From: an uncultured Muribaculaceae bacterium
GTDB taxonomy: Bacteria > Bacillota_I > Bacilli_A > RF39 > UBA660
DNA length: 64,000 nt
Reading direction: 5' to 3'
Assembly (NCBI GenBank): GCA_964447275.1
Contig: CAYURI010000002.1
Span: 17,197-81,196 of the forward strand
Position numbers and translations under genes: made by a program. The first letter of the stretch is position 1, and each line of letters opens with the position of its first letter. Below, one piece after another: positions 45,654-64,000 of the stretch. The notes under the pieces were generated by a model. It made no database searches. It was not told the DNA's origin and worked only from the letters and a program-made list of their open reading frames with translations.

Positions 45654-46109
45654 ATGAAAGAAAGTTTATGGGGTTATTGGTTGATTGTTCTAGGAATATT
45701 TGTTATAATCATCATGATGCTAGTACAAGATTTTACAACCACGAATACTCAAGATTACTATCTTTTAAAAGAAGTAACAGAAGCATCAATGATTGATGCC
45801 GTAGATTATGCTTATTATAGACAACATGGTGAAGTGAAAATTAACAAAGAAAAGTTTGTTGAAAATTTCTTAAGAAGGTTTTCGGAAACAATGAATCTTA
45901 ATAAAACTTATCGAGTTGATTTTTACGGAATATATGAGTCACCACCTAAAGTAAGTGTGAAAATTACGACGACGAGTAATACCTTTACAATAGCTGGAGA
46001 TCAAACATCATTTGATATTGTAAATAAATTAGATGCGATATTAGAACTGAAAATTGGCACATCTAGTTATGAAGATAACTATAATATAAATAGTTATGTA
46101 GGAAGTTAA
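45654..46109 (+). CDS. Small N-terminally anchored membrane protein, possibly a pilin-like or minor subunit
   Basis: WGYWLIVLGIFVIIIMMLV hydrophobic N-terminus followed by a polar domain of about 120 aa. Sits between the giant protein and the CpaB-like gene. Confidence 0.35.
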   Translation: MKESLWGYWLIVLGIFVIIIMMLVQDFTTTNTQDYYLLKEVTEASMIDAVDYAYYRQHGEVKINKEKFVENFLRRFSETMNLNKTYRVDFYGIYESPPKVSVKITTTSNTFTIAGDQTSFDIVNKLDAILELKIGTSSYEDNYNINSYVGS

Positions 46110-46125
46110 AAAGGAGGAATAGAAA

Positions 46126-46989
46126 GTGAAATTAGAAAATATTTTAATGTCTTTTAAGAAGTTCTTTTCGAACAAAAACACTGTAACAATAATAGGAGTA
46201 TTGGTAGGTATATTAATATTATACCTAGGCTATAACTGGCGTGTTAAACAAGCGATAACACCGATCTCAGTACCTTATGCTAAGGTCGAAATATCATCTA
46301 GGACTTTAATTACTAGTGATATGATTGGTTATACGCAAGTACCAAAAAGCATGGCTAATGCTAGTAAGAATTTAGTTACTAATTCAGGACTTGTGGTAGG
46401 TAAATATGTTAGTTATGGATCAACAATTCCAGCTAATAGTTTGTTTTATAGCGAGGCTTTAATGTCTGCTGAAGAACAACCAGATTCAGCATTTGCTGAT
46501 ATACCTGATGGGTATACAATATATTCACTTGGCGTAAACACTCATACTACTTATGGTAATTCTATTTATCCAGGAAATTATATTGATTTATATTTAAAAG
46601 CAATTGATGATACAGGGAAAATTATTTATGCGAAATTAATTGAATCAATTGAAGTATTAGCTGTTAAAGATAGTAATGGTGAACATGTTTTCGAATCAAC
46701 TGTCGAAACACGTAGTCCAGCTGAACTTCTATTCGCGGTTCCTGATGATATGTATTTATTATTAATGAAAGCTGAGTATATAACTACTAATCAAGTAGAA
46801 GTTGTTCCAGTACCTAGAAATGCTGCTTATTCAGCTAATCCTGGTGAAACATTAGTTAAAAGCTCATATTTAAAAGAATTTATTTTAGCGAAAACAACTT
46901 ATGTACCAGAAGATGTTACAACTAATCCAACAACTGAAACTACTGATACAACAAATACACCAACTACGGAGACAACAACCACAAATTAA
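46126..46989 (+). CDS. Flp pilus assembly protein CpaB/RcpC-like (SAF domain)
   Basis: N-terminal TM TVTIIGVLVGILILYLGY. SAF-like VPYAKVEISSRTLITSDMIGYTQVPKSM...LVTNSGLVVGKYVSYGSTIPANSLF. Thr/Glu-rich C-terminal tail. Confidence 0.55.
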   Translation: MKLENILMSFKKFFSNKNTVTIIGVLVGILILYLGYNWRVKQAITPISVPYAKVEISSRTLITSDMIGYTQVPKSMANASKNLVTNSGLVVGKYVSYGSTIPANSLFYSEALMSAEEQPDSAFADIPDGYTIYSLGVNTHTTYGNSIYPGNYIDLYLKAIDDTGKIIYAKLIESIEVLAVKDSNGEHVFESTVETRSPAELLFAVPDDMYLLLMKAEYITTNQVEVVPVPRNAAYSANPGETLVKSSYLKEFILAKTTYVPEDVTTNPTTETTDTTNTPTTETTTTN

Positions 46990-47015
46990 TAAATAAAGAA
47001 TAAAGAGGTGTCAAA

Positions 47016-48134
47016 ATGAATGATGCAATTTTCTCGCAAATTGATTTTGGACCGGTTAAAGAGTTTTTAGATAATGATGATATAACTGATATTAGTTATA
47101 CTAATAATGGTCAAGTATGGTTAAAAACATTATCTAAAGGCGTATATAGTATTGATCGTCCAGAAATTAATAATGCTTTCATCGAAAAACTAGCCTTTCA
47201 ATGTTCTAATGTTATGGGTAAGACCTTTAATATGGCTCATCCAGTCTTAGATGCTGAAAGTGCTGAGCTTCGTATGAATTTCATCCATGAATCAATTTCT
47301 TCTAACGGGATTGCTTGTGTTATTCGTAAAACACCTGCTAAAATTAGATTAAACAAGGAGAAATTACTTGATGAAAAATATATTACTTTAGAATTACATG
47401 ATTTTTTAATTAAATGTGTAGAAGGTCATTGTAATATAATCGTCTCTGGTGAAACAGGTAGTGGTAAAACTGAGTTAGTTAAATACTTAGCTAGTTTTAC
47501 GAAAGAAAATGAAAAAGTTATCACCATTGAAGATACCCTAGAACTTCATTTAGATAGAATATTTCCCCATCGTGATATTGTTGCCATGAAAATTAATAAT
47601 ATTATGTCTTATAGTGATATTTTAGTGGCTTGTATGAGACAAAACCCAAGATGGATACTTTTATCCGAAGTTCGTAGTGCTGAAGCAGTAATGGCCGTAA
47701 GAAACTCTATTTCATCAGGTCATAATATCTTATCAACTATTCACTCTGATAAAGCCGAAAACATTCCAATGAGAATGTATTCTTTACTAGAAACCAACTT
47801 AGACATTGATCAATTCTTAAAGTCTATTCATCGTTATGTTCAACTTGGTGTTCATGTTAGAGGTTATATGAGTAAAGAACTTGGTAGATTTCAAAGAGAA
47901 ATTGTTGAAGTAGTTGAGTTTTATGTTGATGATGATAACAATGCTAAAAGCAATATGATATTTAGAAAGAGTCCTGATGGTAAAGTGGCTATTCAAAATC
48001 CAACTAAATATTTAATTGGCTATATGGAAGCCCAGGGAGTATCAATACCGGAAAACATCTTTTCTTCAGTAACTAAAACTGAAGAAGTAAAACCAAGTTT
48101 TATAATAAATAAAGAAGAAGTCGAAGTTTTATAA
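47016..48134 (+). CDS. Tad/Flp pilus secretion ATPase CpaF/TadA (VirB11/GspE superfamily)
   Basis: Walker A IIVSGETGSGKTELVKYL, Asp box ITIEDTLELHL, Walker B WILLSEVR, His box HNILSTIHS. 372 aa. Confidence 0.75.
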   Translation: MNDAIFSQIDFGPVKEFLDNDDITDISYTNNGQVWLKTLSKGVYSIDRPEINNAFIEKLAFQCSNVMGKTFNMAHPVLDAESAELRMNFIHESISSNGIACVIRKTPAKIRLNKEKLLDEKYITLELHDFLIKCVEGHCNIIVSGETGSGKTELVKYLASFTKENEKVITIEDTLELHLDRIFPHRDIVAMKINNIMSYSDILVACMRQNPRWILLSEVRSAEAVMAVRNSISSGHNILSTIHSDKAENIPMRMYSLLETNLDIDQFLKSIHRYVQLGVHVRGYMSKELGRFQREIVEVVEFYVDDDNNAKSNMIFRKSPDGKVAIQNPTKYLIGYMEAQGVSIPENIFSSVTKTEEVKPSFIINKEEVEVL

Positions 48135-48153
48135 AAAAGAAAGAGGTGCAGCT

Positions 48154-49047
48154 GTGGAACTAATATTATTAATGGTCATCGCGATATTTGTTATGTCTTA
48201 TCGTAAGAATAATGGCGAAAATGTTTACAAGTTTATTGTTAATCAAGTAAATACTGCTTATAACAAATATGCACCATATAGTTTTAAAGAAGTAAGAGAA
48301 AAAGTAAAAGCTTTAGGTCAAGAATACACAACTAAACAATATACGACTCAAGTAATATTATTTGGTGTTGTAGCTGGTGGTATTGCTTACTTATACTTCT
48401 TTAGTTTAATTTGGGCAATTATATATGCTATTATAGCTATTATGTTTATTCCTTATTTAGCTTATTTAAGATGCAAAAGAATCTATAGTGAGTTTATTTT
48501 TGAACAAATTCAAGTATATACAACAAACGTTATTATGGAATTTAATACGACGCAAAGTTTTGTAAAATCCTTAGAAGGTGTTAGAGATTCTGGAATATTA
48601 GAAAACCCAGTCTTAGAAGACTTAAAAATGATGATTGATCTATCTTACCAAAATGGTACAATTGATGAATCAATTGAATATATGAATAATAAATATCCAT
48701 TCTTTATGGTTAAAAATATGCATCAATTATTCTTACAAATTACGAAAGAAGGTTCTAAAGATTCAGGTGAATCTTTAGAAAATATGGCATTAGATATCGA
48801 TATGCTGGTTGAAGGGGTATATCGTGACAGAATGGATCGTCAAACCTTCCATAAAACTTTTGTTACTTATGGACTAGCTTTATATATGTTAGTTATGTTT
48901 ATGCAATTTTTATTAGGTAATGACAATTATTTGGAATTACTAGATTTATGGTATGTCCAAATTCTTCTTCATGCCATTATTATTTTAAATAGCTATTTCT
49001 TAATCGGTGGAGAGAAATACTATAATGAAGATGTGGGGGTAGAATAA
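48154..49047 (+). CDS. TadB-like inner-membrane platform protein (T2SS-F/GspF domain)
   Basis: GTG start after an AGAGGTG RBS. N-terminal TM, paired TMs, a cytoplasmic helical domain and C-terminal TMs. Position is right after the CpaF-like gene. Confidence 0.5.
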   Translation: MELILLMVIAIFVMSYRKNNGENVYKFIVNQVNTAYNKYAPYSFKEVREKVKALGQEYTTKQYTTQVILFGVVAGGIAYLYFFSLIWAIIYAIIAIMFIPYLAYLRCKRIYSEFIFEQIQVYTTNVIMEFNTTQSFVKSLEGVRDSGILENPVLEDLKMMIDLSYQNGTIDESIEYMNNKYPFFMVKNMHQLFLQITKEGSKDSGESLENMALDIDMLVEGVYRDRMDRQTFHKTFVTYGLALYMLVMFMQFLLGNDNYLELLDLWYVQILLHAIIILNSYFLIGGEKYYNEDVGVE

Positions 49048-49048
49048 T

Positions 49049-49837
49049 ATGTACTTTGAAATTTTATTAATTGGTGTCATTATTTATTTCTTACTAGATT
49101 TTAGTGGTCGATTAAGTACTAATCGTTTTATTGAAGATAATGAAACTTATTTTCGTAAATTAAAAGAAAATGATTATGATTTTTATTGCTATGCTAAATA
49201 TGGTAATGGGATTGATGTTGACAAATTGTTTTCAATTCGTTTAAGAAATGGCTTATTATCAATTATTGTTTTATTATTCTTATTCTTAACTAAGTTAAGC
49301 TATGTAAATGTCATATTTTCCCTATTAGTTGGGTTTGGAATCTTTAAATTAGATTATGTAAGCAAGCGTAATTATTATAAAAAGCATTTACATGATATTG
49401 ACCTTTTATTACCATATTATTTAAAAAGCTTAGAAATCTTAATTCAACATTATACTGTGCCAGTTGCGATGGGTAAATCAGTTGAAGATGCCCCAGCGAT
49501 ATTCAAAGATGGTTTAGTAAAGTTGGTTGAAAAGATTGATGCCGGAGATGCTTCGATTGAGCCATATATGGAATTTGCAAGAGAATACCCAGTAAGAGAC
49601 TCAATGCGTATGATGCGACTTTTATATCGTTTAAGCTTAGGTAGACAAGACAGAAAACAAGAACAATTATTAACATTTTCCAAAACAATATCTAACTTAC
49701 AACAAAAATCTCGCGAAACTAAATATAAAGAACGTTTAGAAAAAATGGAAAGCAAAACGATGTATATGTTAGTATCAACTGGAGCTGGCGTTATGTTATT
49801 ATTAGTTTTATCAATATTAATGATGTTTAATATGTAA
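49049..49837 (+). CDS. TadC-like inner-membrane platform protein
   Basis: Same architecture as the preceding gene, with 1-nt spacing. Confidence 0.5.
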   Translation: MYFEILLIGVIIYFLLDFSGRLSTNRFIEDNETYFRKLKENDYDFYCYAKYGNGIDVDKLFSIRLRNGLLSIIVLLFLFLTKLSYVNVIFSLLVGFGIFKLDYVSKRNYYKKHLHDIDLLLPYYLKSLEILIQHYTVPVAMGKSVEDAPAIFKDGLVKLVEKIDAGDASIEPYMEFAREYPVRDSMRMMRLLYRLSLGRQDRKQEQLLTFSKTISNLQQKSRETKYKERLEKMESKTMYMLVSTGAGVMLLLVLSILMMFNM

Positions 49838-49884
49838 AAAAGATGAATTATATATTATAATTATACTAAGGAGGAGTTTTATAA

Positions 49885-50133
49885 ATGAAAGAAGCGACAG
49901 GAGAATTAAACATGACAGTTATAACCGTAATAGCTATAGCTGCAATTGGCGTAATATTTTATACATTGGTATGGCCACTTATTAAGAACAACATTAGTCA
50001 AAGTACAAAGTGTGCTAATGCAATTTGTGATGAATGTGCTAGTGGAGCTAAAACAACTAGTTGTATTTATTATGAATATGATGATGAAGGAACCCAAACT
50101 GGAACAAATCAAATAAGTTGTCCTTGTAAATAA
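49885..50133 (+). CDS. Small pilin-like protein: short charged leader, Gly, long hydrophobic helix, Cys-rich C-terminus
   Basis: MKEATG|ELNMTVITVIAIAAIGVIFYTLVW..., then a C-terminal domain with seven Cys (CANAICDECASGAKTTSCIYYEY...SCPCK). Strong RBS AAGGAGGAG. Confidence 0.45.
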   Translation: MKEATGELNMTVITVIAIAAIGVIFYTLVWPLIKNNISQSTKCANAICDECASGAKTTSCIYYEYDDEGTQTGTNQISCPCK

Positions 50134-50150
50134 GCTGGTAGGTGATTTAA

Positions 50151-50591
50151 ATGAGAGAGGCAATAGGTGGAACATGGCTATTTAATATAGTCGTTCTATT
50201 TGTAATGTTGTTTACTGGCTACCTATGTCTAGCCATTAATTATTCGCGAGCTTATAATGTAAAAAATGAAATAGTTGATATCATTGAAAGAGAAAATGGT
50301 TATAATGATAAAGCAGTCAAAGATATTGCTTCATATTTAACTGAAATAGGCTATCGAACAACTGGTAAATGTGAAGAAGATATGATAGGAAACAACAGCG
50401 ATAAAGACTTTGGTGTTGGTGAAAATATATATTGTTACAAAGCAATAAAAGTTGGTGGCGAAGAAGACTATGCGGAAAGTGTTTATTATCAAGTAGAAGT
50501 TTTCTTTCAAATTGATTTACCAATATTTAGAGATTGGTTTACTTTTTCCATAAAAGGCGATTCTAATCAATTATTTTATAGTGAAAGTTAA
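50151..50591 (+). CDS. TadE-like pseudopilin, paralog 1
   Basis: MREAIGGTWLFNIVVLFVMLFTGYLCLAINYSRAYNVKNEIVDIIERENG follows the TadE N-terminal pattern (hydrophobic helix, then aIeFgRa...l.na.REGaR-like). Confidence 0.5.
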   Translation: MREAIGGTWLFNIVVLFVMLFTGYLCLAINYSRAYNVKNEIVDIIERENGYNDKAVKDIASYLTEIGYRTTGKCEEDMIGNNSDKDFGVGENIYCYKAIKVGGEEDYAESVYYQVEVFFQIDLPIFRDWFTFSIKGDSNQLFYSES

Positions 50592-50611
50592 TAAAAGTAA
50601 GGTGATGTAAA

Positions 50612-51091
50612 ATGCGACAATCAATTGGTAGTACATGGTTATTTTCATTAATGATTATTTTCATCTTACTTTTTACTGCTTATTTAGCAGTAGCTATTAA
50701 TTACTCAAAAGCTTTTAAAGTCAAAAATGAGTTAATTAATATTATTGAAAGAGAAGAGGGCCTTACTAGTAATATAGACGAAGAAGACCCAGGAGCAGTA
50801 GAGCAAATTGATAAATATTTAGAGAGCGTTGGTTATGTGAATCGTGGTAACTGTCCAAGTGGTTATCAAGGTTATAACAAATATAAAGATGGTAATAAAA
50901 CCAAGTATGGTTATTGCGTTAAAAAATATAATAGCTATAATGAAAAAGAACGTCAAAGATCATATTATAGTGTTGTATTGTTTTTTAATATGGATTTACC
51001 AATCTTCGGTGATTTCTTTACTTTCAGAGTAAAAGGAGAAACTACCGAAATAGTATATCCAGCTGATTGTATAACTTGGCTAGAATGTTAG
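50612..51091 (+). CDS. TadE-like pseudopilin, paralog 2
   Basis: MRQSIGSTWLFSLMIIFILLFTAYLAVAINYSKAFKVKNELINIIEREEG. Also shares the C-terminal FFNMDLPIFGDFFTF motif with paralog 1 (FFQIDLPIFRDWFTF). Confidence 0.5.
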   Translation: MRQSIGSTWLFSLMIIFILLFTAYLAVAINYSKAFKVKNELINIIEREEGLTSNIDEEDPGAVEQIDKYLESVGYVNRGNCPSGYQGYNKYKDGNKTKYGYCVKKYNSYNEKERQRSYYSVVLFFNMDLPIFGDFFTFRVKGETTEIVYPADCITWLEC

Positions 51092-52489: not shown

Positions 52490-52567
52490 TAAAAAAAATA
52501 GTCAACATTTTCTTGGTGCTTGACTTTTTTTATGCTATAATTTCCTTAGATAGTGAGTGATTATTTA

Positions 52568-53686
52568 ATGAAAAAGATCATTTTAATAATATTGACAGCT
52601 TTAGTAAGTTTATTTATTTTTAATTATAATGTGGAGGCTTTGAATTCTGATGCTACAGCGACATGCGTGTATAAGATTCCAGGGAGTAATGTTTTTAATT
52701 CTTTTACCTATGAATATGCTAATGTTGACGGTTCTTATAATTGCTCTGTTCCTCCAACTACATCTTCGAATGTATATATATGTGAAGTAGATAGCGGACT
52801 TACAAAAGAAAAGTTTGTTAACAATAAAACTGATGAGCTTCTGTGCCCGATATTATACTATAGCTACGGAATTAAATCGTCTTTAGCTATAGAAGGATCC
52901 CCATCAATAACTACTCATTCATTCGCTATTTCTTTCAAAGATTATAATGAAAATTTGTCATGGTTTCAGAAAATATTTGATGGTAAAACTGTGTATGGAG
53001 CAATGAACTTATCGTTTTCAAGTATCAAACAAGGATCTCAAAAAATAGAAGAAGAAAATGAATCGAAATATCTACAATGTATATGTGGAGACATCTTGCT
53101 AAAGCAAGGATCTTTAACTTTTAACAATCAATACAGCCAATATTCTCAAGAAACTGATTTTACTAGTTTTAATTTAAACAATTTTACAAAATGCCCAGAA
53201 GCGATATATTATAAGTTTAATGATGCGTTTTTATCTGGGAATAGATACATGGATATAAGAGATACTAATTTTGACAAGGCTCAATCAGCGGCCTGTGCAA
53301 CTACTGAAGATGCTGATGCTTGGGATGGGTCATCAGGTAATGATACTGATTATAAACCTCAAGAAGATGTAATAAAATCTTTTTGCGAAGAAACGCACGG
53401 TGTTTGGAAGATGGCTGGCTATTTAATTAATGCCTTAAAAGTAATGATTCCCGTAATTATAATTGTTATGGGGTCAATTGATTTAGGTAAAGCTGTGGTT
53501 GCTAATAGCGAAGATGAAATGAAAAAGGCCACTCAAGTACTAATAAAAAGAGTTATAGCCGGAATAATAATTTTCTTTATCCCAACTATTATGAACTTAA
53601 TATTAAAAATGGCATCTAATTACGTGTCAACAATTAGTAGTAGTTCAAGTTGTGTTGAATGTGTTACAAAGCCTTGGGGATGTTAA
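52568..53686 (+). CDS. Secreted Cys-rich protein carrying the same C-terminal helix-loop-helix membrane module (paralog 2)
   Basis: Signal peptide MKKIILIILTALVSLFIFNYNVEA. Ectodomain of about 270 aa with many Cys. C-terminus MIPVIIIVMGSIDLGKAVVANSEDEMKKATQVLIKRVIAGIIIFFIPTI...CVECVTKPWGC. Confidence 0.5.
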   Translation: MKKIILIILTALVSLFIFNYNVEALNSDATATCVYKIPGSNVFNSFTYEYANVDGSYNCSVPPTTSSNVYICEVDSGLTKEKFVNNKTDELLCPILYYSYGIKSSLAIEGSPSITTHSFAISFKDYNENLSWFQKIFDGKTVYGAMNLSFSSIKQGSQKIEEENESKYLQCICGDILLKQGSLTFNNQYSQYSQETDFTSFNLNNFTKCPEAIYYKFNDAFLSGNRYMDIRDTNFDKAQSAACATTEDADAWDGSSGNDTDYKPQEDVIKSFCEETHGVWKMAGYLINALKVMIPVIIIVMGSIDLGKAVVANSEDEMKKATQVLIKRVIAGIIIFFIPTIMNLILKMASNYVSTISSSSSCVECVTKPWGC

Positions 53687-53746
53687 TAAACTTCTTGGCA
53701 TAAAAATGAATATATGTTAGAATAAAATATGATAGGGAGTGTAAAC

Positions 53747-54460
53747 ATGAAGTGCTTAAAAATTTTATTTATTTTTGCTTTTACTTTATTTACTAGTATT
53801 GTTTTTATAGATAAGGTTAATGCTGCTAGTTCTTGTTATTGCTGTGGAGGAGCTGGCGGTTGTACTTATGTGTGGAAAGAGGCTAGAGATGCTAACGGCA
53901 CAAATTGTGTTAAAGTTTCTAAAAGTAAAACTGCTTGTAATGGGACAAACACTACAAATGGCAGCGGTGCTTGCTGGTATTGTGAAACAGGTTCTACGAG
54001 TGGGTACAGATGGACTTCTGATGGTTCTAAACCAAATGCTAATTGTTATGTGGTAAACGGAAAAACTCAATCAAGTTGTAATGGATCATCAACTGGCGGC
54101 GGTTCGGGCTCAGGATCAACTTCGGATGATGAGACCTACGAAGATTATGAGGATTCTGATGGCCCTGATATTAGTGGTCCATCAACATCATCAGGTTGTT
54201 CAGGAATTATTGGTAATGGCCAATTTCGTATTTATTTAACTGATATTCTTAATGCAATGAGAATAGTTGGCGTTGCAATGGTTATTGTTTTTTCCACAAT
54301 TGATTTTGCACAAGCTTTAATTACTCAAGATAATGATGCAATGAAAAAGGCTTCTGAAAAGTCAATGAAGAGACTAATATTAGCAATGGTTATATTCTTT
54401 ACCCCAATTTTATTAAATATTTTATTATCATTAGTTGGTATAGACGCGAGTTGTATATAA
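53747..54460 (+). CDS. Secreted Cys-rich protein carrying the same C-terminal module (paralog 3)
   Basis: Signal peptide MKCLKILFIFAFTLFTSIVFIDKVNA. SSCYCCGGAGGC...CWYCETG Cys-rich domain, then a Gly/Ser/acidic linker. C-terminus RIVGVAMVIVFSTIDFAQALITQDNDAMKKASEKSMKRLILAMVIFFTPIL...DASCI. Confidence 0.5.
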   Translation: MKCLKILFIFAFTLFTSIVFIDKVNAASSCYCCGGAGGCTYVWKEARDANGTNCVKVSKSKTACNGTNTTNGSGACWYCETGSTSGYRWTSDGSKPNANCYVVNGKTQSSCNGSSTGGGSGSGSTSDDETYEDYEDSDGPDISGPSTSSGCSGIIGNGQFRIYLTDILNAMRIVGVAMVIVFSTIDFAQALITQDNDAMKKASEKSMKRLILAMVIFFTPILLNILLSLVGIDASCI

Positions 54461-54480: not shown

Positions 54481-56385
54481 ATGGCAGATTTACTATTAAC
54501 ATGTGGAACTGGTATGAGGGTGTTTTATTCAATAATGCTCTCGCTAGATTCAGCTATTTATTGGTGTGTAGATGTTGTATATAGCGTTTTTATTGTTATA
54601 TGTAATACACAATTGTTTTCTGCCACCACTTTCGAAGCATTTTCGAGCAGAATCTATGCTATTTTTGGCGTAGTTATGCTATTTATTGTTACGAGCCAGT
54701 TACTTGTTAATATTGCTGACCCTGACAAAGCAGCGTCCGGAGAAGCGAGCACTGCTAAACTTGTTCAAAATATTATAATTGCTTTAATTTCGATAGTTTT
54801 GCTACCGACAGTTTTTAAATATTTATATGTTATCCAAAAGGCTGTTGTTACTGAAAATATTATTGGTAATATAATTGTTGGTGGATATGAGACATCAACG
54901 AGCAAAGATTTTAAAAGCATGGTAAAGCATAGTGGGAAAGATATGGCTTTTAGAACATTTACAGCTTTTATTAATCCTGCTGGGTATGCGGGTAATAATG
55001 ATAAGGGATGCGAAGCAATACCAGGTTTAACTTATTGTCTTATTTACGATAAAATAAATAATTATGGTTCAAGTGATTATGGTAAAGTGTCTTTGTTCGC
55101 TAGCCAAAACCAAGTTACTAATGAAATTTATAAAGGCAAAGTTGAATATCGATGGGGATTTTCTGCTTTGGCAGGTATTTTAGTTACTTATTTTCTATTG
55201 TCATATTCAATAGATATGGGAGTGCGTGTCGCTAAGCTTGCTTACTATCAATTAATTGCTCCTGTTCCTATAGTTTTAAGAATAATTCCTAAGCAACAAT
55301 CAGTGTTTGATAACTGGGTTAAAGGGTTAACAGGCACATATATTGGCGTCTTTATTAGATTAATGATTGTATATTTTTGTATATTTTTAATAAATGTTAT
55401 ACCGGCTGCTTGGGATGGAATAGTAAAAGCTGGTGGTGGCAGTGATAGAACTATTGTTAATGCGATGGTTGTAATATTACTGATTTTTGGTGTATTTATA
55501 TTTATGAAAGAAGCACCAAAATTAATTACACAAATGTTTGGTATCAGCGAAGGTGATATGTCAATGGGTATTGGCAAAAAACTTGCTGGTGCTGCTGTTA
55601 TTGGTGGCGCAGTTGCTGGCGCTCAAAAGCTTGGTAAAAAATATGCTGGTAAAGCATATGGTGGCCTAACTGGAGCTCTTGGTGGCGGTTGGGATTCAAT
55701 GATGAATGGCGAAGGATTTGGCGCCGGATTTAGAGCTGGTGGCCTTGGTGGTTGGGATGCTGGTGGTAGACAATTTGGCAAACAACGTTTAGAATCATAC
55801 AAATCAAGAACTGGAGATTATAAAGGCAAACCTGGTATATTTGGTGATAAATCATGGGGAACAAAATATAGAAATGCAACAGGAGACGCTAGAGATGATG
55901 CTTATAAAGCTGCTTCAACGGCTAGAATACAGGCAGCTCAAATGCTTGCTGGGGCAAGCTATTCAAGATTTGTAAGTGATTTAGAAACTGAAATTCGTTC
56001 TAATCCCGCATTTATGAATAGTATAGCTGGTTATGCTCCAGATGTTCAAGATGCTTATATTAATCGCGAAATATCAAGCAGATCCAATGCGACATTGCAA
56101 AATCTGGTTAGTGGTAATGATGTTGATAGAGCAACGGCTTTATCCTATGTTAGGGATAATCTTGGAATGTCTGCCGCAGATATTAATGCTTTATCGTCAG
56201 TTGGTAAGACAGTTGCTGCTGAAGCCAAACAACAAGCTAAAGTTCAAGAAGAAAAGGATAATAAAAAAGTTGGAAGAATCTTGCAAAATGTTTCTGGTGG
56301 AGGAACTCCTCCTGCTGCACCTCCCGCTGCGCCTCCTGCTGGTGGCGCTGGTGGTGGAGCAGCTGGCGGTGGGGGACATCCATAA
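54481..56385 (+). CDS. Polytopic membrane protein, VirB6/TrbL/TcpH-like, with a Gly/Ala/Pro-rich C-terminal tail
   Basis: At least six hydrophobic helices across 330 aa (for example YQLIAPVPIVLRIIPKQQSVFDNWVKGLTGTYIGVFIRLMIVYFCIFLINVIP). Hydrophilic Gly-rich C-terminal half ending PPAAPPAAPPAGGAGGGAAGGGGHP. Sits immediately upstream of the VirB3/VirB4-like genes. Confidence 0.45.
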   Translation: MADLLLTCGTGMRVFYSIMLSLDSAIYWCVDVVYSVFIVICNTQLFSATTFEAFSSRIYAIFGVVMLFIVTSQLLVNIADPDKAASGEASTAKLVQNIIIALISIVLLPTVFKYLYVIQKAVVTENIIGNIIVGGYETSTSKDFKSMVKHSGKDMAFRTFTAFINPAGYAGNNDKGCEAIPGLTYCLIYDKINNYGSSDYGKVSLFASQNQVTNEIYKGKVEYRWGFSALAGILVTYFLLSYSIDMGVRVAKLAYYQLIAPVPIVLRIIPKQQSVFDNWVKGLTGTYIGVFIRLMIVYFCIFLINVIPAAWDGIVKAGGGSDRTIVNAMVVILLIFGVFIFMKEAPKLITQMFGISEGDMSMGIGKKLAGAAVIGGAVAGAQKLGKKYAGKAYGGLTGALGGGWDSMMNGEGFGAGFRAGGLGGWDAGGRQFGKQRLESYKSRTGDYKGKPGIFGDKSWGTKYRNATGDARDDAYKAASTARIQAAQMLAGASYSRFVSDLETEIRSNPAFMNSIAGYAPDVQDAYINREISSRSNATLQNLVSGNDVDRATALSYVRDNLGMSAADINALSSVGKTVAAEAKQQAKVQEEKDNKKVGRILQNVSGGGTPPAAPPAAPPAGGAGGGAAGGGGHP

Positions 56386-56418: not shown

Positions 56419-56733
56419 GTGTATATAATACCAGCAAACACGAAGAAATCGATGTTGATATTAGGATTTTTTACAGTATTAGACTTGATAATATTTATTA
56501 CTGGTGTTGGGTTAACCTTGATATGCTTAATAGCATTAAAAACATCTGCACTGGGATTCATGATACTAGAGTTAATGCCAGCTTTAATAGCATTATTACT
56601 TGTAACTCCAGTACCTTATTATCATAATATGCTGCAATTGATGCGAAATTTCTTTAATTTCTTTGGTAAGAGAAGAAGATACATATGGAAAGGATGGTGT
56701 TGGCATGACGACGATACAGTCAAACCAATTTAA
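56419..56733 (+). CDS. VirB3/PrgI-like small membrane protein
   Basis: About 100 aa with two hydrophobic helices. GTG start after an AAAGGAGGAAT RBS. Directly precedes the VirB4-like gene. Confidence 0.4.
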   Translation: MYIIPANTKKSMLILGFFTVLDLIIFITGVGLTLICLIALKTSALGFMILELMPALIALLLVTPVPYYHNMLQLMRNFFNFFGKRRRYIWKGWCWHDDDTVKPI

Positions 56734-57316
56734 AGCAGTTCAAAATACAATAACTAATAGTTCTAGTTCAAATACTCAATCAAAGTATTCAGAAGACTGG
56801 GTGCCAGTTAAAAATATTTTGAATGGCATGATTCATTTAGAAAATGGCGAATTTGTAACGGGTGTAAAAGTAACGCCTAAGAATATATTCATTCTTGATC
56901 AAGATAGTCAGAATAACATTATCTTTAATCTAAGAACATTTTATAATGTTATTGATTATGAGTTTTGGCTTATTATAGCGGACAGACCAGTTGATATAAA
57001 TATTTTCTTATCACAGTTACAAGTTTTATATAACGATACACCAAATCCATTAGTAAGAAAATTAATTATGCAGGATATTAATAAAGCTAATTCATTTATG
57101 AGTACGCAATTAAATGTTGTTGATACTGAGTATTTCATTTTGTTTAAAGAAAAGAAAATGGAACTTATTCAAAAACGTATTCATAGTTTAATAAGCGGAC
57201 TAGCTAATTGTCAAATGAATTCAACTCAAGTAACAAATGAGGATTTAAGGATGCTAATTGATAACTTCTTTAATGGTGGTTTAAGAACCGAGTTTAGGAC
57301 GGTGACGACAGAATGA
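56705..57316 (+). CDS. VirB4/TraE-family N-terminal domain, encoded as a separate ORF (start uncertain)
   Basis: DWVPVKNILNGMIHLENGEFVTGVKVTPKNIFILDQDSQNNIIFNLRTFYNVIDYEFWLIIADRPVDINIFL matches the N-terminal domain pattern of Gram-positive VirB4 homologues (Tn916 Orf16/TcpF-type). Its stop overlaps the next ATG (ATGA). Confidence 0.5.
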   Translation: MTTIQSNQFKAVQNTITNSSSSNTQSKYSEDWVPVKNILNGMIHLENGEFVTGVKVTPKNIFILDQDSQNNIIFNLRTFYNVIDYEFWLIIADRPVDINIFLSQLQVLYNDTPNPLVRKLIMQDINKANSFMSTQLNVVDTEYFILFKEKKMELIQKRIHSLISGLANCQMNSTQVTNEDLRMLIDNFFNGGLRTEFRTVTTE

Positions 57317-59097
57317 ATTTAAAATCAGAATTAGCCCCAAAGGGGATTGAATTTAGAAGTCAAGAATTCACGATTAGTGGTAAATATGCTGTAATTCTTA
57401 CAGTAGTAGGCTTTCCTAAATCTATTTATCCAGGTTATTTGGCAGAAGTATCTAATTTATCGGGTGTTAAAATAGTAATTAAACATATTCCTATTGAATT
57501 TTCGACATTGTCAAAAATGTTAAATAAAGAGATAGCAGATTTAAAAGTTAGATATCAAAATGAAAATGATAAAACTATTCAAGAAAGAATTAGGCAAGAT
57601 TATGAATCATTAGAAGAATTTATTCAAATGCTTGCTGCTACTCAATCAAGAATATATGACTTCCAAATGCATATTATGATTACTTCTGATACAAAAGAAG
57701 AATTAGAAGTTAAGAAGATGCAATTACGTAACTACTTAGATGCTATGGGTATGAGAGCTATACCATTAATGTTTGAACAAGAAAAAGTACTTAAATCAAT
57801 GGTACCAATATTCCCTAAACAGGATATTGAAAACAGAGTGGGAACACCAATTCCTTCTGTTACAGTAGCAGCAATGTATCCATTTGTCTTTGATAGTATT
57901 AAAGATCCAGGATTGTCTACTTTATTAGGGTTTGACTTCTCTGGTGGTGTAATATTATTTAATCAATTCTTATATCAAATTAAAAAAGAATATAACCGTA
58001 ATAATGCTAATATGATTATTCTTGGTACTAGTGGTAGTGGTAAATCTACAGCTGCTAAATTACTTTTAAGGAACCATATTAGAAATGGTTATCAAATAGT
58101 TGTAATTGACCCTGAAGGCGAATTACAAGAAATGACTAAAACGATGGGTGGTAACTTTATTGATCTAGGTAAGGGTGGAGAATTTGGGATGGTAAACCCT
58201 CTAGAAGTAATAGTTGACGCTGATGAAGAAGAACTAGAACAAGGATTAGGTTACACTATCTTAACAAGGACTTTACAAAGCTTAAAAGCTTTTATGAAAT
58301 ATTACACTCCTTCAATTGAAGAAGATGTTTTAACAATGTTTAGTGAAGTAGTTCAAGATACTTATAAACGTTATAAAATTGATTTTGATACGAACTTCTC
58401 TAAATTTAAACCGGAAGATTTCCCAACATTCAGTGATGTTTATGCAACAATTAAAGGAAGACTTCTAAGTATGCCTGAACATAGTCATGAAAAAGATGTT
58501 ATGGAACGCTTAGAATTAAAGATTAGACCACTTGTTAAAGAATTAAAATATTACTTTGATGGTCATACAACAATTGAAAGTAATACTGAGTTTATCGTAT
58601 TTAATATTAAAGAGTTAATGAACTCTGATGAAAATATTCGTAACGCTTTATTCTTTAATATATTAAAATATGCTTGGGGTTTATGTTTAGATAAATCAAT
58701 TAATACTATTATGATGGTCGATGAAGCGCATGTCTTACTTTCTAGTCGTAATGAACTTGGTGCTGAATTCTTAGCCCAAATTCAAAGACGTAGTCGTAAA
58801 TATAATACGGGGACAATTATGATTACTCAACAACCAACTGATTTCGCAGCACCTAATATTATTGTTCATGGTAAAGCCATCTTTGATAACGCAGCTTATT
58901 ATCTAGTAATGGGACTAAAGAAACAAGCAGTTGAAGATTTATCAAAATTAATTGACTTAAACGACAACGAAAGAGAAAGCATTAAATATTACAGTCAAGG
59001 TCAAGCATTATTTGTTTGTGGTAGTAGAAGAATGAGAATAAATGTCGTATTAACTCAAGAAGAATTAGATTCATTTGGTACAGGTGGCGGATTATAA
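57313..59097 (+). CDS. VirB4/TraE/TcpF-family conjugation-type ATPase (middle and ATPase domains)
   Basis: LAPKGIEFRSQEFTISGKYAVILTVVGFPKSIYPGYL, Walker A NANMIILGTSGSGKSTAAKLL, VIDPEGE, Walker B MMVDEAHVLL, IMITQQPTDF. Confidence 0.8.
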   Translation: MNLKSELAPKGIEFRSQEFTISGKYAVILTVVGFPKSIYPGYLAEVSNLSGVKIVIKHIPIEFSTLSKMLNKEIADLKVRYQNENDKTIQERIRQDYESLEEFIQMLAATQSRIYDFQMHIMITSDTKEELEVKKMQLRNYLDAMGMRAIPLMFEQEKVLKSMVPIFPKQDIENRVGTPIPSVTVAAMYPFVFDSIKDPGLSTLLGFDFSGGVILFNQFLYQIKKEYNRNNANMIILGTSGSGKSTAAKLLLRNHIRNGYQIVVIDPEGELQEMTKTMGGNFIDLGKGGEFGMVNPLEVIVDADEEELEQGLGYTILTRTLQSLKAFMKYYTPSIEEDVLTMFSEVVQDTYKRYKIDFDTNFSKFKPEDFPTFSDVYATIKGRLLSMPEHSHEKDVMERLELKIRPLVKELKYYFDGHTTIESNTEFIVFNIKELMNSDENIRNALFFNILKYAWGLCLDKSINTIMMVDEAHVLLSSRNELGAEFLAQIQRRSRKYNTGTIMITQQPTDFAAPNIIVHGKAIFDNAAYYLVMGLKKQAVEDLSKLIDLNDNERESIKYYSQGQALFVCGSRRMRINVVLTQEELDSFGTGGGL

Positions 59098-59105: not shown

Positions 59106-59744
59106 GTGGTGATAGTTTTGGCAGAAACAAATGCAAATAATTTAAATAACGAATCCTTCGATCAAAGTTATGGTCGAAGGGTTTTGCGTGGTGGCAAACA
59201 ATCACAGATAGTTAAATTACCAGGAGCAACAACCGGTAACAGGTTTAATTATTCTAATGCTTTAAGAAGTAATGAAAAAAGAAAAGAAAGCGAAGAATTA
59301 ACAAAAGGAAGCCAAGAGCAAGAGGATGATGGTGAAGGGAATAAGTCTAATTTAGGCTCAAAAGCTCAAGAAGCAGCAGTTGGTATTGCAGCAAAAACTT
59401 TTTTACCACCTGGATTACAAGGAATAGGTAAATCTATTGCTAATAATGTATTAAATAGTAGTGGTGGTGTATCTGAAGCTGCAGAAAAGCTTTTAAAAGC
59501 TAAAAAAATGAAAATCTACTTATATGCTGGAATTGCTTTCTTTTCTTTTATTTTAATAATAGCAATAATATTTGCAGTCTCTTCAACTGGTGGCACTGAA
59601 TCATCTGGAGCTGGATTTAATGAAGTCTCAGAATATGAATTGAACGAGAATTATGATGAGATGCCGGAAGAAGATAATGCAGAAGACTCTAATGTTGAAG
59701 TTGTAGAAAACAGTGAGGTAAATAATAATGAAACAGCACAGTAA
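59106..59744 (+). CDS. Bitopic membrane protein with a polar/acidic C-terminus; possible VirB8-position scaffold (tentative)
   Basis: ORF with GTG/TTG start choices. One TM helix (IYLYAGIAFFSFILIIAIIFAV) near the C-terminal third and an acidic tail. Confidence 0.35.
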   Translation: MVIVLAETNANNLNNESFDQSYGRRVLRGGKQSQIVKLPGATTGNRFNYSNALRSNEKRKESEELTKGSQEQEDDGEGNKSNLGSKAQEAAVGIAAKTFLPPGLQGIGKSIANNVLNSSGGVSEAAEKLLKAKKMKIYLYAGIAFFSFILIIAIIFAVSSTGGTESSGAGFNEVSEYELNENYDEMPEEDNAEDSNVEVVENSEVNNNETAQ

Positions 59745-62700
59745 TAATTTTAAAATTATTAATATAATAGTCATTATTATAGCTTTTATTTCTAGCTTTC
59801 TTTTTAGTGTTGAACAAAACAAAATAAATTATAGTTTTGAAACAGAAGTTAATGTTATTTATAAAAATGCTTCAAATGATATGACTGAAGAAGAAAAAGA
59901 AGAATACTATCAAGACTTTTGGGAAAAAATATTTTATGAAAAAAATATTAAACCAAGTAATAAAAAGTTTTATCGTCGTTTTAATCGAGCTTACTATTGG
60001 TGGCGTTTAAGAGCTGGAGATTCTGTGGATGACCTGGCAGTTTTAGAAGCATCTAAACCGCACTTATTAGCAGCTTTATTTTTAGATTATGCACCTGATA
60101 ACTTTAACAGTGATATTTCTGAGTGGGCAGTTAATGGAGATAAAGACAATATATATATAAATGATGAAGATTTTGCTTATCAAGTCTGTGATAATTATAT
60201 AGATGAAAATGGGGCTTCTGACAATGATAGTAATTGTAGTAGTGGTGGTTTAGAAGACAAAGAATATGCTCCAAAAACAATACTTGATGTTATAGCTCGA
60301 GCCATTTCTGAAGCAATTGCAAAAGCCCAAGAATATTTAGATGATAAAGACACAATAAGAGCACTAGGTAGGCACTTGTTTGTTTACCAGCCAGTTTGTT
60401 ATTTAACAAAAGAATTGGATGATGGTACTACTCAAAAAATACCTTATGAGTATGCTAAAAAATATTCTTTTGATGAGATTTTAGATTTAATTTCTCAAAT
60501 AAAATCTTTAAAAGATATTTTTAGCATTTTCCCTGAATATACTGATTGCGTGGGCCCTGATAGTAAATGGCTAGTAAAAAATGGTGGAGATGCGATTAAG
60601 ACCGAATTTGATTTAGATGATATTGTAGATTTATGTTATTTTTATAAACATTTAGTTGAAAGTGATTATTTTGAAAACCACGTTCATTTTAAAGCTGATT
60701 TTGATAATATAAAAAAATATACTAAAACTGACCAAGAATATTTAGTAGAATCAAGTAAATTAAAAGTTGGTTTGGCTAGGCAAATAATTGATATAGTTGA
60801 TTTAGCAAATGATGATGATCCGGTTTATGATTCAAGTGTTTCAGCAGCTAGTGGAGCTTCTGTTAGCTATAGTTTATCAAAAGATTTGTATATTACACTT
60901 AGTAATAGTAGAAAAGATGATAATGGTAATTTGATAAAAAATGGATCTTATCCAATAGATCAATATGTTGAAGGAGTACTAGATGCTGAAGTTCTTGGGG
61001 TTTTCTATAGTTCTGGAGAATCAGAAGCAACTATATACACAGCTCTTCAAGCTAATGCTATAGCCATAAGAACTTATGCTTTAAAGGTTACAAACGAAGG
61101 CGTAAAATCAATTTCTAATAGTACTGATAATCAAGTTTTTACTGATCAATATTTTAAAGAGACTGGTACAAAATATATGCTGGCTAGAAACGCAGCTTTA
61201 TCTACTACTGGTCAAGTATTGACAGAAAATGGCCAACTTATAAAGTCAGAATATAGCAGTTTTAGTGAATGGACTAATTATTATTGCGAAAATGGGTTAT
61301 GTTATACTTCATACCAAAAAATAGGCTCAAAAAATAGTGGTACTTTTCATACGGTAATTGCCAAAAGTAAATGGGGTTTATCTGGTGGTCACAATCGTGG
61401 AATGAGTCAGTGGGGCTCATTGTATTTAGCAAGTCAGGGGTATACTTATACAGGAATTTTAGAAAACTTTTATGCTGAAAATGTTACTCTTGCTAATTAT
61501 GATTACAGTTATAAATCGACTGATAATGTTACCTTAGGTGAATATGGTGTTAAAGAAGCAATGTTGGTATGTGATTTGTTTACTTCTAGTGAGTACTCTG
61601 ATATTAGAGATTTACTTGGTGATAACGTTACTTTAAAAATACCTCTAAGACTTACAAGTACAAAATATCAATCATCATCAGGTTATAAAGCTTCTAGCGG
61701 CGGAACAAATGGGATTAGTTATAATAGATTTAATGGCGTTCATGGTCAAGTATTTCAGTGTGAATGGAATCCAGAACATACAGCACTTTTATATGCTTGC
61801 AACGGAGATAAAGGGTATATAATTAACAATCAAGACTATAAAAGAAATCAAGAAACAAATCAATACCAAACATATAAAAGGAATTCAGATGGTACATTAG
61901 CCAAAGATAGTGAAGGTAACCAATTATATGTTGAAACAGACAATGCTAGCAAAAGGATTTTGCTTGATGTAAGTGAAGCAAGTCGAGCTGATGTTTATCT
62001 CCCTAGCGCGATAGTATGGCAATATGCACTAAACACGTCTACTATAAAAATACCTACTGAAGGTGGATGGGACGATCACGGATATATCGAGGCGGTTACT
62101 GGGTTTTATCCGCATTATGTAAGTGGTACATTGCCTTCTACCATCACTTATAGGCCAGTAATAAATTATGATGGAACAGCTAAAACCGAGACCATTTCAA
62201 CTGGGTTAACATGTCCTAGTAGTGATTATGAATTAGTTGCTGAAAACTGCTGTTTAGTTACTGATAAAACCCAATGTGAACCTGCTATTGAAGGAACTAC
62301 TGAAAGAGTTGTTTATGAGACAGACAATAAAAAGCCTTCAGCAGATGAGCTATTTGCTTCTAGATATGATACAATGCTAGTCGCTGGTGAAGCTGTAAAT
62401 TTAGAGACAGAATATAATACGATTTTATTTACTGGTGTTATTGATTCAGCTGCAGTTGCTATTACTAGTTCTGACCCATCAAGATTTTGGGATACTGATC
62501 ATGCTGATACAATTTTATATATGTATGTTCCTGATTATAATGATATAGATCCTGAACTTCAGCCATACTTTTCTAATGAGGTAACAAATATTTTGCAGCT
62601 AACCTCAGCTAGCAGGAGTGGCAATATTAGAGATGGAGTAGACTTAGTCGCAGCTAAAGGTGAAACTCCAACAGCTGGTTTTATTAATGTAACAGAGTTT

Positions 62701-63291
62701 TTAGAATCTTTAGGATTTACAAATATTGGTGGAATGGCTAATGGTGCTTGGGATGATCTTGAAGCTCATCACTGGCAACTAGCTTGTGATTATTCTAATT
62801 CTCTTACTTTGGCTGGTATGTCATTGTCTGATTTGGAAAGAGATTACTGTTGTAAAGGGCTATTTCATGAAAATCCTAGTTATGACTCATATGATGCAGG
62901 TACCGGAAGAAGTTATCGTGAAACTTCATCAGATTTAGGTGGATATTTCAGTGATGCTTGGAAAATAGAGTTTTGTAACGAGACTATTGAAGGTGCTAAA
63001 TTAGTTAAAGCAGCTTGTAAAGCAGCATTTGCTGAACAAAGTGCTTGTATATCTCAATGTTATGCAAGTCTTAAAGAAGAAGATGCTTCAGCTTTAGGCT
63101 ATAAATGGAATTCAAAAGGCTATTGGTATAATGCCAAAGGACCAATTTTTGATTCAAATAAAACAGCAGTAGGATGTACATATAATACTGGTGATTTTGG
63201 TGCTACCGTTTCAGAAACTAGAAAAATCGGCCCAGAAGGGGAATGCCCTTGTAGTATATTAGGAAATTCTGGAGGCAGTTCTAATGCTTAA
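59728..63291 (+). CDS. 1187-aa membrane-anchored protein with a SpoIID/LytB-type peptidoglycan-remodelling domain; candidate T4SS-associated cell-wall hydrolase (VirB1 functional analogue)
   Basis: N-terminal TM IINIIVIIIAFISSFLFSV. SpoIID/LytB signatures EVLGVFYSSGESEATIYTALQANAIAIRTYAL, NQVFTDQY, SGGHNRGMSQWGSLYLASQGYTYTGILENFY. Large additional Cys-containing extracellular regions. Confidence 0.6.
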   Translation: MKQHSNNFKIINIIVIIIAFISSFLFSVEQNKINYSFETEVNVIYKNASNDMTEEEKEEYYQDFWEKIFYEKNIKPSNKKFYRRFNRAYYWWRLRAGDSVDDLAVLEASKPHLLAALFLDYAPDNFNSDISEWAVNGDKDNIYINDEDFAYQVCDNYIDENGASDNDSNCSSGGLEDKEYAPKTILDVIARAISEAIAKAQEYLDDKDTIRALGRHLFVYQPVCYLTKELDDGTTQKIPYEYAKKYSFDEILDLISQIKSLKDIFSIFPEYTDCVGPDSKWLVKNGGDAIKTEFDLDDIVDLCYFYKHLVESDYFENHVHFKADFDNIKKYTKTDQEYLVESSKLKVGLARQIIDIVDLANDDDPVYDSSVSAASGASVSYSLSKDLYITLSNSRKDDNGNLIKNGSYPIDQYVEGVLDAEVLGVFYSSGESEATIYTALQANAIAIRTYALKVTNEGVKSISNSTDNQVFTDQYFKETGTKYMLARNAALSTTGQVLTENGQLIKSEYSSFSEWTNYYCENGLCYTSYQKIGSKNSGTFHTVIAKSKWGLSGGHNRGMSQWGSLYLASQGYTYTGILENFYAENVTLANYDYSYKSTDNVTLGEYGVKEAMLVCDLFTSSEYSDIRDLLGDNVTLKIPLRLTSTKYQSSSGYKASSGGTNGISYNRFNGVHGQVFQCEWNPEHTALLYACNGDKGYIINNQDYKRNQETNQYQTYKRNSDGTLAKDSEGNQLYVETDNASKRILLDVSEASRADVYLPSAIVWQYALNTSTIKIPTEGGWDDHGYIEAVTGFYPHYVSGTLPSTITYRPVINYDGTAKTETISTGLTCPSSDYELVAENCCLVTDKTQCEPAIEGTTERVVYETDNKKPSADELFASRYDTMLVAGEAVNLETEYNTILFTGVIDSAAVAITSSDPSRFWDTDHADTILYMYVPDYNDIDPELQPYFSNEVTNILQLTSASRSGNIRDGVDLVAAKGETPTAGFINVTEFLESLGFTNIGGMANGAWDDLEAHHWQLACDYSNSLTLAGMSLSDLERDYCCKGLFHENPSYDSYDAGTGRSYRETSSDLGGYFSDAWKIEFCNETIEGAKLVKAACKAAFAEQSACISQCYASLKEEDASALGYKWNSKGYWYNAKGPIFDSNKTAVGCTYNTGDFGATVSETRKIGPEGECPCSILGNSGGSSNA

Positions 63292-64000
63292 AGGTGAAAA
63301 TATAAAATTATGGTTGTTTATTTTAGTGATTTCAATTGTTGTAGTAGGAGTAACTATTTTCTTTACAAATAAGAAAATTGCTTATGAAAAAAGCAAAGTA
63401 GAGACTTATATAGTTTATAATTATGACTATGCATATTATTATGATAATAAAGTATGGAATAAAATAACTGACATGTCTTTTGTTAATCAAAAAGAATTTA
63501 ATGTTTATAGTAGTAATAGCTATTTTAAGACATTATCAGCAAGTATAAATAAATATACTAGAAAATTAATTTATAATGATGGAACATCTCAATATGCAAA
63601 CTTAATTGGCATAAATAGCAATAAAACAATTTTTATAAGTAAATATAATGTAGAAAATTTATCCAACGAAGATTTAAATTTTGTAAAAAGTTATTTAAGT
63701 AATAAGAAACAGACATATGTAGAAGGTCAAACAGAAGTAATAATGTATAAATTAGATATTGATGCTGATTTAATACTAGAAAAGATATTTCAAATTTATT
63801 ATAAAGTAAACTCTAATTGTTATAATTATATATTAATTAAAGATGGTGAAAATACAGAAGTGGTATTGTCATATTCAGCATTAGAATCAGAAATTAAATA
63901 TAAAAAAGCATCGATTAATTTAATAATTGATGCTGATTTAAATGAAAAGAAAGAGATTTTAATAGTTGAAAAAGGTTATGAATATTCAAAATTATTACTA
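63284..64000 (+). CDS. 5' part of a further membrane-anchored protein. The ORF is open to the window end and is absent from the track because no stop is reached.
   Basis: ATG at 63284 overlaps the previous stop (ATGCTTAA). LWLFILVISIVVVGVTIFF TM. 239 codons in frame to position 64000. Confidence 0.5.
   Translation, partial: MLKGENIKLWLFILVISIVVVGVTIFFTNKKIAYEKSKVETYIVYNYDYAYYYDNKVWNKITDMSFVNQKEFNVYSSNSYFKTLSASINKYTRKLIYNDGTSQYANLIGINSNKTIFISKYNVENLSNEDLNFVKSYLSNKKQTYVEGQTEVIMYKLDIDADLILEKIFQIYYKVNSNCYNYILIKDGENTEVVLSYSALESEIKYKKASINLIIDADLNEKKEILIVEKGYEYSKLLL

Follow-up and report, generated by a model that had tools for sequence, protein, structure and literature searches.

The type IV secretion systems (T4SSs) of Gram-positive bacteria carry wall hydrolases such as CwlT (ICEBs1), PrgK (pCF10), TraG (pIP501) and TcpG (pCW3), which are membrane-anchored and join a glycan cutter to a peptidase. 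To our knowledge, all T4SS wall enzymes described so far have SLT, lysozyme-like or glucosaminidase glycan folds plus peptidases; wall-less mycoplasmas need no wall hydrolase. SpoIID is known from the engulfment of the forespore in Bacillus and Clostridioides, and the canonical enzyme cuts glycan only once an amidase has stripped the strands of their peptides (PMC6221140). Glycan cleavage by SpoIID outside sporulation has been reported at the division septum of chlamydiae (PMC6635528), and a SpoIID-like domain, with a proposed role in breaching the wall for a mobile element, occurs in a small number of polyvalent proteins from phages and conjugative elements (Iyer et al. 2017, PMC5512222). Here, we analyze a gene located at positions 59728 to 63291 (plus strand) of a stretch of 64,000 nucleotides, hereafter the window, from the contig CAYURI010000002.1 of an uncultured Bacilli bacterium with a G+C content of 29%. 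This gene encodes a membrane-anchored, multidomain hydrolase candidate of 1187 residues with a compact SpoIID-type core and stands in the T4SS gene cluster of its host. In our opinion, it probably encodes the dedicated wall-opening enzyme of a chromosomal T4SS, with a glycan-cutting activity that would depend on the glutamate residue E421.

The gene is a single intact open reading frame (ORF) with an ATG start codon and a GAGG Shine-Dalgarno sequence 8 nucleotides 5' of it. Its extent and its product of 1187 residues agree with a first-pass annotation of the window made from the DNA letters alone, and the motifs quoted there are all found in the translation (ANAIAIRTYAL, DNQVFTDQY, and SGGHNRGMSQWGSLYLASQGYTYTGILENFY). 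The same holds for the proposed N-terminal membrane anchor, since a hydropathy scan shows one hydrophobic helix at residues 8 to 28 (59749 to 59811, plus strand), a transmembrane (TM) helix or signal anchor, and no other; everything beyond this helix is predicted to be extracellular. The annotation had also mentioned extracellular regions containing Cys. Indeed, the protein has 24 Cys residues, nearly all of which are invariant across the five full-length orthologues.

The SpoIID assignment had been made from motifs and left to depend on a profile match and on the catalytic Glu, and both uphold it. A predicted lytic transglycosylase domain of the SpoIID/LytB type spans residues 406 to 589 (60943 to 61494, plus strand) and is recognized by Pfam, by NCBIfam, by a PDB profile and in an alignment of 30 sequences of the compact domain (A4). 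The Pfam family PF08486 matches residues 406 to 499 with an E value of 1.8e-7 and 32.1 bits, for a cut-off of 23. Furthermore, the profile made from A4 retrieves the solved structures of SpoIID, with E values of 2.3e-28 for 4RWR and of about 1e-21 for 5I1T and 5TXU. The match to 4RWR falls in two blocks, in which profile positions 3 to 105 correspond to residues 62 to 175 of the structure and positions 141 to 177 to residues 283 to 318, and therefore about 107 central residues of the canonical SpoIID (4RWR 176 to 282) are without counterpart. In their place, the protein of the window has a segment of 39 residues containing Cys (residues 514 to 552, with C520 and C525; 61267 to 61383, plus strand). 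The domain is thus not the full-length canonical SpoIID domain of about 270 to 300 residues, central part included, but a compact form of about 185 residues, in which the middle third of canonical SpoIID is absent. The whole protein, at E values up to 0.01, and the N- and C-terminal regions taken alone, at E values up to 10, gave no match to the SLT, glucosaminidase or lysozyme families.

Examination of the alignments allowed us to pinpoint E421 (codon GAA, 60988 to 60990, plus strand) as the predicted catalytic residue. It is invariant in an alignment of 69 sequences (A3) as well as in the 30 sequences of A4, and it aligns with E101 of Clostridioides difficile SpoIID (5TXU), the catalytic residue of that enzyme, whose replacement by Ala abolishes both peptidoglycan degradation and sporulation (PMC6221140). 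The equivalent residue of Bacillus subtilis SpoIID, E88, is essential (PMC6635528). R448 and G558 are also invariant, and Y413, V417, Q469, H555, S560 and Q561 are nearly so among 69 to 116 relatives. The AxRTY motif is present as AIRTY (residues 446 to 450), and the GGHNRGMSQ motif (residues 553 to 561; 61384 to 61410, plus strand) corresponds to GGHGRGMSQ in the family consensus and to GHGVGMSQ in canonical SpoIID. This domain is the best-conserved part of the protein, with a mean pairwise identity of 79% among the five orthologues, as compared with 69% for the N-terminal domain and with 60%, 48% and 53% for the successive thirds of the C-terminal region. The compact domain may represent a minimal SpoIID catalytic core.

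The position of the gene is the second line of evidence. The first-pass annotation had assigned it to the hydrolase position of a T4SS, after VirB4 and a bitopic protein, and this gene order is the one we find, with a VirB4 that is split and an intervening protein of 212 residues with a single TM helix. The gene lies between those of VirB4 and VirD4, is co-oriented with both, and overlaps its upstream neighbor by 17 nucleotides and its downstream neighbor by 8. In eight of the nine lineages sampled, the hydrolase gene comes after the split VirB4, directly in seven of them and one small gene later in the clade of the window, and it is found one or two small genes 5' of VirD4 wherever the contig extends far enough. 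In the loci of the orthologues, the hydrolase is preceded, in this order, by a VirB6-like protein, a 104-residue protein with two TM helices, the N-terminal part of VirB4, the VirB4 ATPase and a TM protein of about 190 residues and is followed by a 251-residue protein, a 233-residue lipoprotein and the VirD4 coupling protein (PF02534 with an E value of 1e-51 in related loci), and then by the housekeeping genes VTT and RmuC.

To see to what extent the compact domain occurs elsewhere, 1.84 billion representative proteins were searched exhaustively with HMMER, and hits were kept at E values up to 1e-3. The compact SpoIID family comprises at least 197 protein clusters. About ten of the 197 hits, full-length or fragmentary, align outside the core and the remainder only over residues 405 to 590 or so, which is how the compact domain of about 185 residues was defined. 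Full-length orthologues are rare, with only five among 5.8 billion clustered proteins, 55 to 60% identical and all with the same gene order. A genome scan with the 1187-residue protein as single query gave no match, and a scan with the alignment of the five orthologues gave two loci. In a word-indexed profile search, the alignment of the domain returned only canonical SpoIID proteins. A plasmid or phage origin was also considered and set aside: by tblastn, no relative of the compact domain was found in PLSDB (72,556 plasmids) or in 50,697 phages, the domain of the window giving no match in PLSDB and a typical domain of the family giving only canonical SpoIID/LytB genes in PLSDB and none in the phages.

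All 69 relatives scanned with Pfam carry SpoIID (best E value 1.4e-19), and nearly all relatives have one TM helix ahead of it. The additional domains detected in these 69 proteins are CHAP (28), M23 (14), NlpC/P60 (9), Peptidase_C39_2 (9) and VanY (4). Encoded directly 3' of VirB4 are P0009 (1011 residues), with CHAP beyond SpoIID, P0013 (611 residues), with M23, P0023 (637 residues), with VanY, and P0087 (1116 residues), with a rotamase and CHAP; the same position is occupied by P0018 (805 residues), with only VanY-like motifs beyond SpoIID, P0010 (1029 residues), in which no further domain was detected, and P0016 (876 residues), for which none is on record. The compact SpoIID thus appears to serve a whole T4SS lineage as its regular module for glycan cutting, in most cases joined to a peptidase, and not to be a single recruitment. 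The parvulin-type rotamase of P0087 (L014, 181 to 3531), located ahead of SpoIID and CHAP, is an unusual fusion for a T4SS hydrolase.

The other regions of the 1187-residue protein are less easily classified. The N-terminal domain (residues 60 to 395; 59905 to 60912, plus strand) is conserved and shared with the T4SS hydrolases P0008 to P0011 only. The C-terminal region of about 600 residues (61495 to 63288, plus strand) is rich in Cys, is the fastest-evolving part of the protein, and stands where sister lineages have CHAP, NlpC/P60, M23 or VanY. Neither of them (residues 60 to 395 and 590 to 1187) has a match to any known family or fold, and the two structure models included in the analysis are of low to moderate confidence. 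Two assignments of the C-terminal region were considered and rejected. A VanY/LAS metallopeptidase remains an idea only, which found no support in Pfam at E values up to 10 or when a profile was run against PDB sequences; the partial relative P0006 has DHHAGVALDID and EAHHY, reminiscent of VanY/LAS peptidases, and the protein of the window (P0001) has degenerate motifs of this kind, in which H784 and EAHHW (1012 to 1016) are kept and the Asp is absent. A divergent CHAP domain (C678 to H1014) came from a forced column of a MAFFT alignment and is backed by no hidden Markov model.

The way in which such a protein would serve a T4SS can be outlined as a working model, which predicts an enzyme activity, an order of cleavage, a requirement for secretion and roles for the N- and C-terminal regions. 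The N-terminal helix would insert the protein in the membrane, with the remainder facing the wall, and the SpoIID-type domain would use E421 to cut the backbone of N-acetylmuramic acid and N-acetylglucosamine locally around the assembling channel, letting the channel and the pilus components through the peptidoglycan. In sister lineages, the fused CHAP, NlpC/P60, M23 or VanY domain would supply the peptide-cleaving step within one polypeptide, and the fusion would combine the tasks of SpoIIP and SpoIID in a single protein. In the clade of the window, the partner activity may perhaps be provided by the C-terminal region or by a separate protein, or else the compact domain may accept strands that still bear peptides.

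Several observations weigh against the wall-opening role. The NCBIfam model of the SpoIID/LytB domain (TIGR02669) matches with an E value of 3.4e-16 and 60 bits, below its cut-off of 83.3. Because about 107 central residues are absent, the activity and substrate preference of the compact domain may differ from those of canonical SpoIID. No peptidase or amidase domain was detected in the 1187-residue protein, which leaves the peptide-stripping step of this clade without an assigned catalyst. The gene context was sampled for nine of the at least 197 clusters. Lastly, P0012 (429 residues, SpoIID and a faint CHAP) is near no T4SS gene, being encoded after a ribosomal protein operon and beside a D-Ala-D-Ala carboxypeptidase, and the compact-domain family is consequently not exclusive to T4SSs.

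Some of these observations could be accommodated if the SpoIID-like domain did not cut at all and acted as a peptidoglycan-binding or scaffold module placing the T4SS in the wall. The absence of the canonical central third would fit such a function, as would the lack of a detectable partner peptidase and the presence, in this clade, of an Asn where the family motif GGHGRGMSQ has the Gly that follows the His. We nevertheless regard it as unlikely, since even highly diverged relatives show no change, or almost none, in the catalytic Glu and the motif residues, which is not expected of a dead enzyme, and since the SpoIID domain is the most conserved region of the protein.

Rates of divergence across the locus bring a second alternative into consideration. 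When the window is compared with its closest relatives (loci L002 to L005), identity reaches 93 to 98% for VirB4, 82 to 91% for the N-terminal part of VirB4 and 81 to 83% for VirD4, 82 to 95% for the pilin-like and 330-residue proteins, and 88% and 77 to 80% for the flanking RmuC and VTT. By comparison, it is 53 to 60% for the hydrolase, 52 to 56% for the 251-residue protein, 59 to 66% for the VirB6-like protein, about 40 to 55% for two VirB2-like candidates of 377 and 243 residues, and 29 to 34% for the 212-residue protein. The contrast between highly conserved cytoplasmic or core parts and predicted exposed parts at 29 to 66% suggests that the surface of the machine is under relaxed or diversifying selection. 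It could also be the mark of a polymorphic antibacterial T4SS effector that degrades target walls and whose immunity protein would be the downstream lipoprotein, as in the bacteria-killing T4SS of Xanthomonas. The low identity of the hydrolase as compared with VirB4 and RmuC, the swapping of peptidase modules between lineages (CHAP, M23, NlpC/P60, VanY or the novel region) and the lipoprotein gene two genes 3' would all be in line with this proposal. It is quite improbable in our view, given that the N-terminal anchor fits Sec insertion in the producer and not export through the T4SS channel, and that Gram-positive conjugation systems have their hydrolase in this fixed slot beside VirB4. Furthermore, the downstream gene of about 220 to 235 residues is present with any peptidase module and is 70% conserved, more than the hydrolase itself, which fits a structural component better than an immunity protein. 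That the protein might be a housekeeping autolysin or an adhesin lying beside T4SS genes by chance, as P0012 with its compact domain and CHAP but no T4SS, and the large Cys-rich extracellular regions that could act in adhesion, might suggest, is very improbable in view of a post-VirB4 position kept in eight of nine lineages although their VirB4 proteins are only 74 to 98% identical, of reading frames that overlap both neighbors, and of an N-terminal domain found only in members linked to a T4SS.

The wall-opening role that we favor is set among genes that can be assigned with varying precision. VirB4 is encoded by two ORFs that overlap by 4 nucleotides and map to contiguous parts of NF045975, a split kept in all related loci. 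The N-terminal part (56663 to 57316, plus strand) covers positions 94 to 276 of this model (E value 5.7e-13) and matches the TraC-like family PF26593 in orthologues, and the C-terminal ATPase (57313 to 59097, plus strand) covers positions 294 to 891 and carries the Pfam domains AAA_10 and P-loop_TraG. NF045975 (VirB4_plasma) is the best family for VirB4, with an E value of 4.5e-105 and a score of 352 bits, which does not reach the equivalog cut-off of 590. Just 5' of VirB4, the protein of 104 residues with two TM helices (56419 to 56733, plus strand) is VirB3-like by position and topology only and is kept in all loci. Further upstream, a polytopic membrane protein of 634 residues (54481 to 56385, plus strand) is VirB6/TrbL-like; it matches the Mbov_0396 TM family of NCBIfam (NF045889, E value 3.5e-8) and pLS20_p028 (E value 4.9e-4), both below their cut-offs, and its orthologue in L013 matches PF19597 (TrbL_4). 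The two proteins of 377 and 243 residues (52553 to 54460, plus strand) each combine a signal sequence with two TM helices near the C-terminus and are possible VirB2-like pilins, with a weak match to PF18895 (T4SS_pilin, E value 0.0098). On the other side of the hydrolase gene, the gene of the 251-residue protein, which has an N-terminal TM helix, starts 8 nucleotides before the hydrolase stop and runs off the window (63284 to 64000, plus strand).

The protein of 212 residues (59106 to 59744, plus strand), located between VirB4 and the hydrolase in this clade only, consists of a cytoplasmic part of low complexity, a single TM helix and an acidic tail. As the hydrolases of other lineages carry a cytoplasmic tail of their own, of 100 to 240 residues, ahead of the TM helix, it may on topology be the counterpart, separated by gene fission, of the tail and TM helix fused to the hydrolase elsewhere. 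Its topology and composition would suit a piece detached from the N-terminus of the hydrolase, but phmmer gave no significant similarity.

A Tad/Flp-type pilus gene set, co-oriented with the T4SS, adjoins it on the 5' side (45654 to 51091, plus strand) and is considered here as context only. Its products are DUF5411, CpaB/RcpC, a CpaF-type ATPase, two TadB/C-like proteins of polytopic topology and three pilin-like proteins whose N-termini resemble one another, and the adjacency of Tad and T4SS genes is kept in L008, L010 and L012. The gene just 5' of the Tad genes (42281 to 45637) encodes a protein of 1118 residues that has a signal sequence and matches no Pfam family, and that might belong to the system as a surface component or adhesin.

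The first-pass annotation had discussed the gene in terms of conjugative T4SSs. The system of the window is not clearly a conjugative element: it is chromosomal and has conserved flanks, and its VirB4 resembles that of a Mycoplasma integrative and conjugative element (ICE). L002, L003, L005, L008 and L010 share the VTT-RmuC flank, with three genes inserted before it in L010, and the VirB4 proteins of these species are 74 to 98% identical to that of the window. No relaxase, integrase or transposase was found in a Pfam scan of most ORFs of the window of at least 100 residues, some small ORFs being left out, nor is any on record downstream. Because the flanks are shared across species and none of these genes was found, the locus looks vertically inherited and chromosomally fixed and not recently acquired.

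Concerning the wall, the two upstream genes that the annotation had named as consistent with a walled host, encoding an LD-carboxypeptidase (2312 to 3388) and a PASTA protein (14862 to 16103), are both confirmed, and Peptidase_S11 and BacA genes in related loci are in line with such a host. The neighbors of P0012 (L011, 10001 to 11290) are Peptidase_S11 and two 'Gate' genes, a grouping reminiscent of dacB-spmA-spmB in spore formers, and the same trio occurs near the T4SS in L008 (21318 to 23090). The contig of L002 and L006 (GCA_964493665.1, CAZBOZ010000008.1) is titled uncultured Muribaculaceae bacterium yet has a Bacilli-type gene order; because of this order and of the presence of YutD and DUF1292, typical of Bacillota, in the syntenic L003, the label or the binning of GCA_964493665.1 is probably wrong. 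Isolated, accessory-looking genes lie elsewhere in the window (5418 to 8439 and 29560 to 31470) and encode a 506-residue helix-turn-helix protein, a protein with a zeta-toxin-like segment, a Bro-N protein and, on the minus strand, a DUF5050 protein.

A broader scenario can be drawn from these elements, which we put forward tentatively and with more doubt than conviction. A composite machine, made of a Tad pilus and a T4SS like that of Mycoplasma ICEs, would be chromosomally fixed throughout an uncultured lineage of walled Bacilli related to mycoplasmas, where the small SpoIID and its interchangeable peptidases would carry out the SpoIIP-then-SpoIID sequence in one polypeptide. Such a machine would serve routine exchange of chromosomal DNA or interaction between cells, and not the spread of a mobile element, with its exposed parts under diversifying selection.

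With respect to described systems, the closest relative of the catalytic domain is SpoIID of Bacillus and Clostridioides, with which it shares homology, the catalytic Glu, the AxRTY and GHxxGMSQ motifs and extracytoplasmic membrane anchoring. It differs from SpoIID in having about 39 Cys-containing residues for about 107, in being embedded in a protein of 1187 residues, and in its T4SS context, which is not one of sporulation; the SpoIID equivalog model TIGR02870 scores 28.8 bits for a cut-off of 234.75. The Cys and His of the Zn site of C. difficile SpoIID have no evident equivalents in the protein of the window. The chlamydial SpoIID is a stand-alone protein with a canonical domain and a role in division and is not a module of a secretion system, and the polyvalent proteins are multi-enzyme proteins made in the cytoplasm and injected or transferred, unlike the membrane-anchored protein described here.

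The functional likeness is greatest with CwlT, PrgK, TraG and TcpG, which are also encoded in a T4SS cluster near VirB4, anchored in the membrane and modular, and the relatives reported here likewise pair a glycan cutter with a peptidase. The difference resides in the SpoIID domain itself, in the lack of a detectable peptidase and in the two large domains without known fold of the 1187-residue protein. The first-pass annotation had called the choice of SpoIID an unusual recruitment. It is unusual insofar as full-text searches of the literature found no T4SS with a dedicated hydrolase of the SpoIID type, the nearest statement being the one on polyvalent proteins; it is not an isolated case, the domain being used family-wide, and roles of SpoIID/LytB proteins outside sporulation were already known. 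This T4SS very probably opens the wall with an enzyme type not previously described for that job. SpoIID would thereby be a new fold for T4SS wall opening and the rule in one T4SS lineage, whose compact SpoIID genes are currently unnamed in public data. Swapping of modules is to be expected among T4SS wall hydrolases, and the natural fusions of the compact domain to amidases and peptidases offer a way to examine the rule that SpoIID requires denuded glycan.

As for the secretion machinery, the nearest counterpart is the T4SS of Mycoplasma ICEs. The VirB4 of the window matches NF045975, the model of the conjugal ATPase family of these elements (Mbov_0397 VirB4), and its VirB6-like protein matches NF045889, that of their membrane protein family Mbov_0396, both below the equivalog cut-offs. 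The system of the window differs from the Mycoplasma one in that its VirB4 is split, its host is apparently walled, a wall hydrolase is present and the locus is fixed beside Tad genes, and it links the conjugation machinery of mycoplasmas to their walled relatives.

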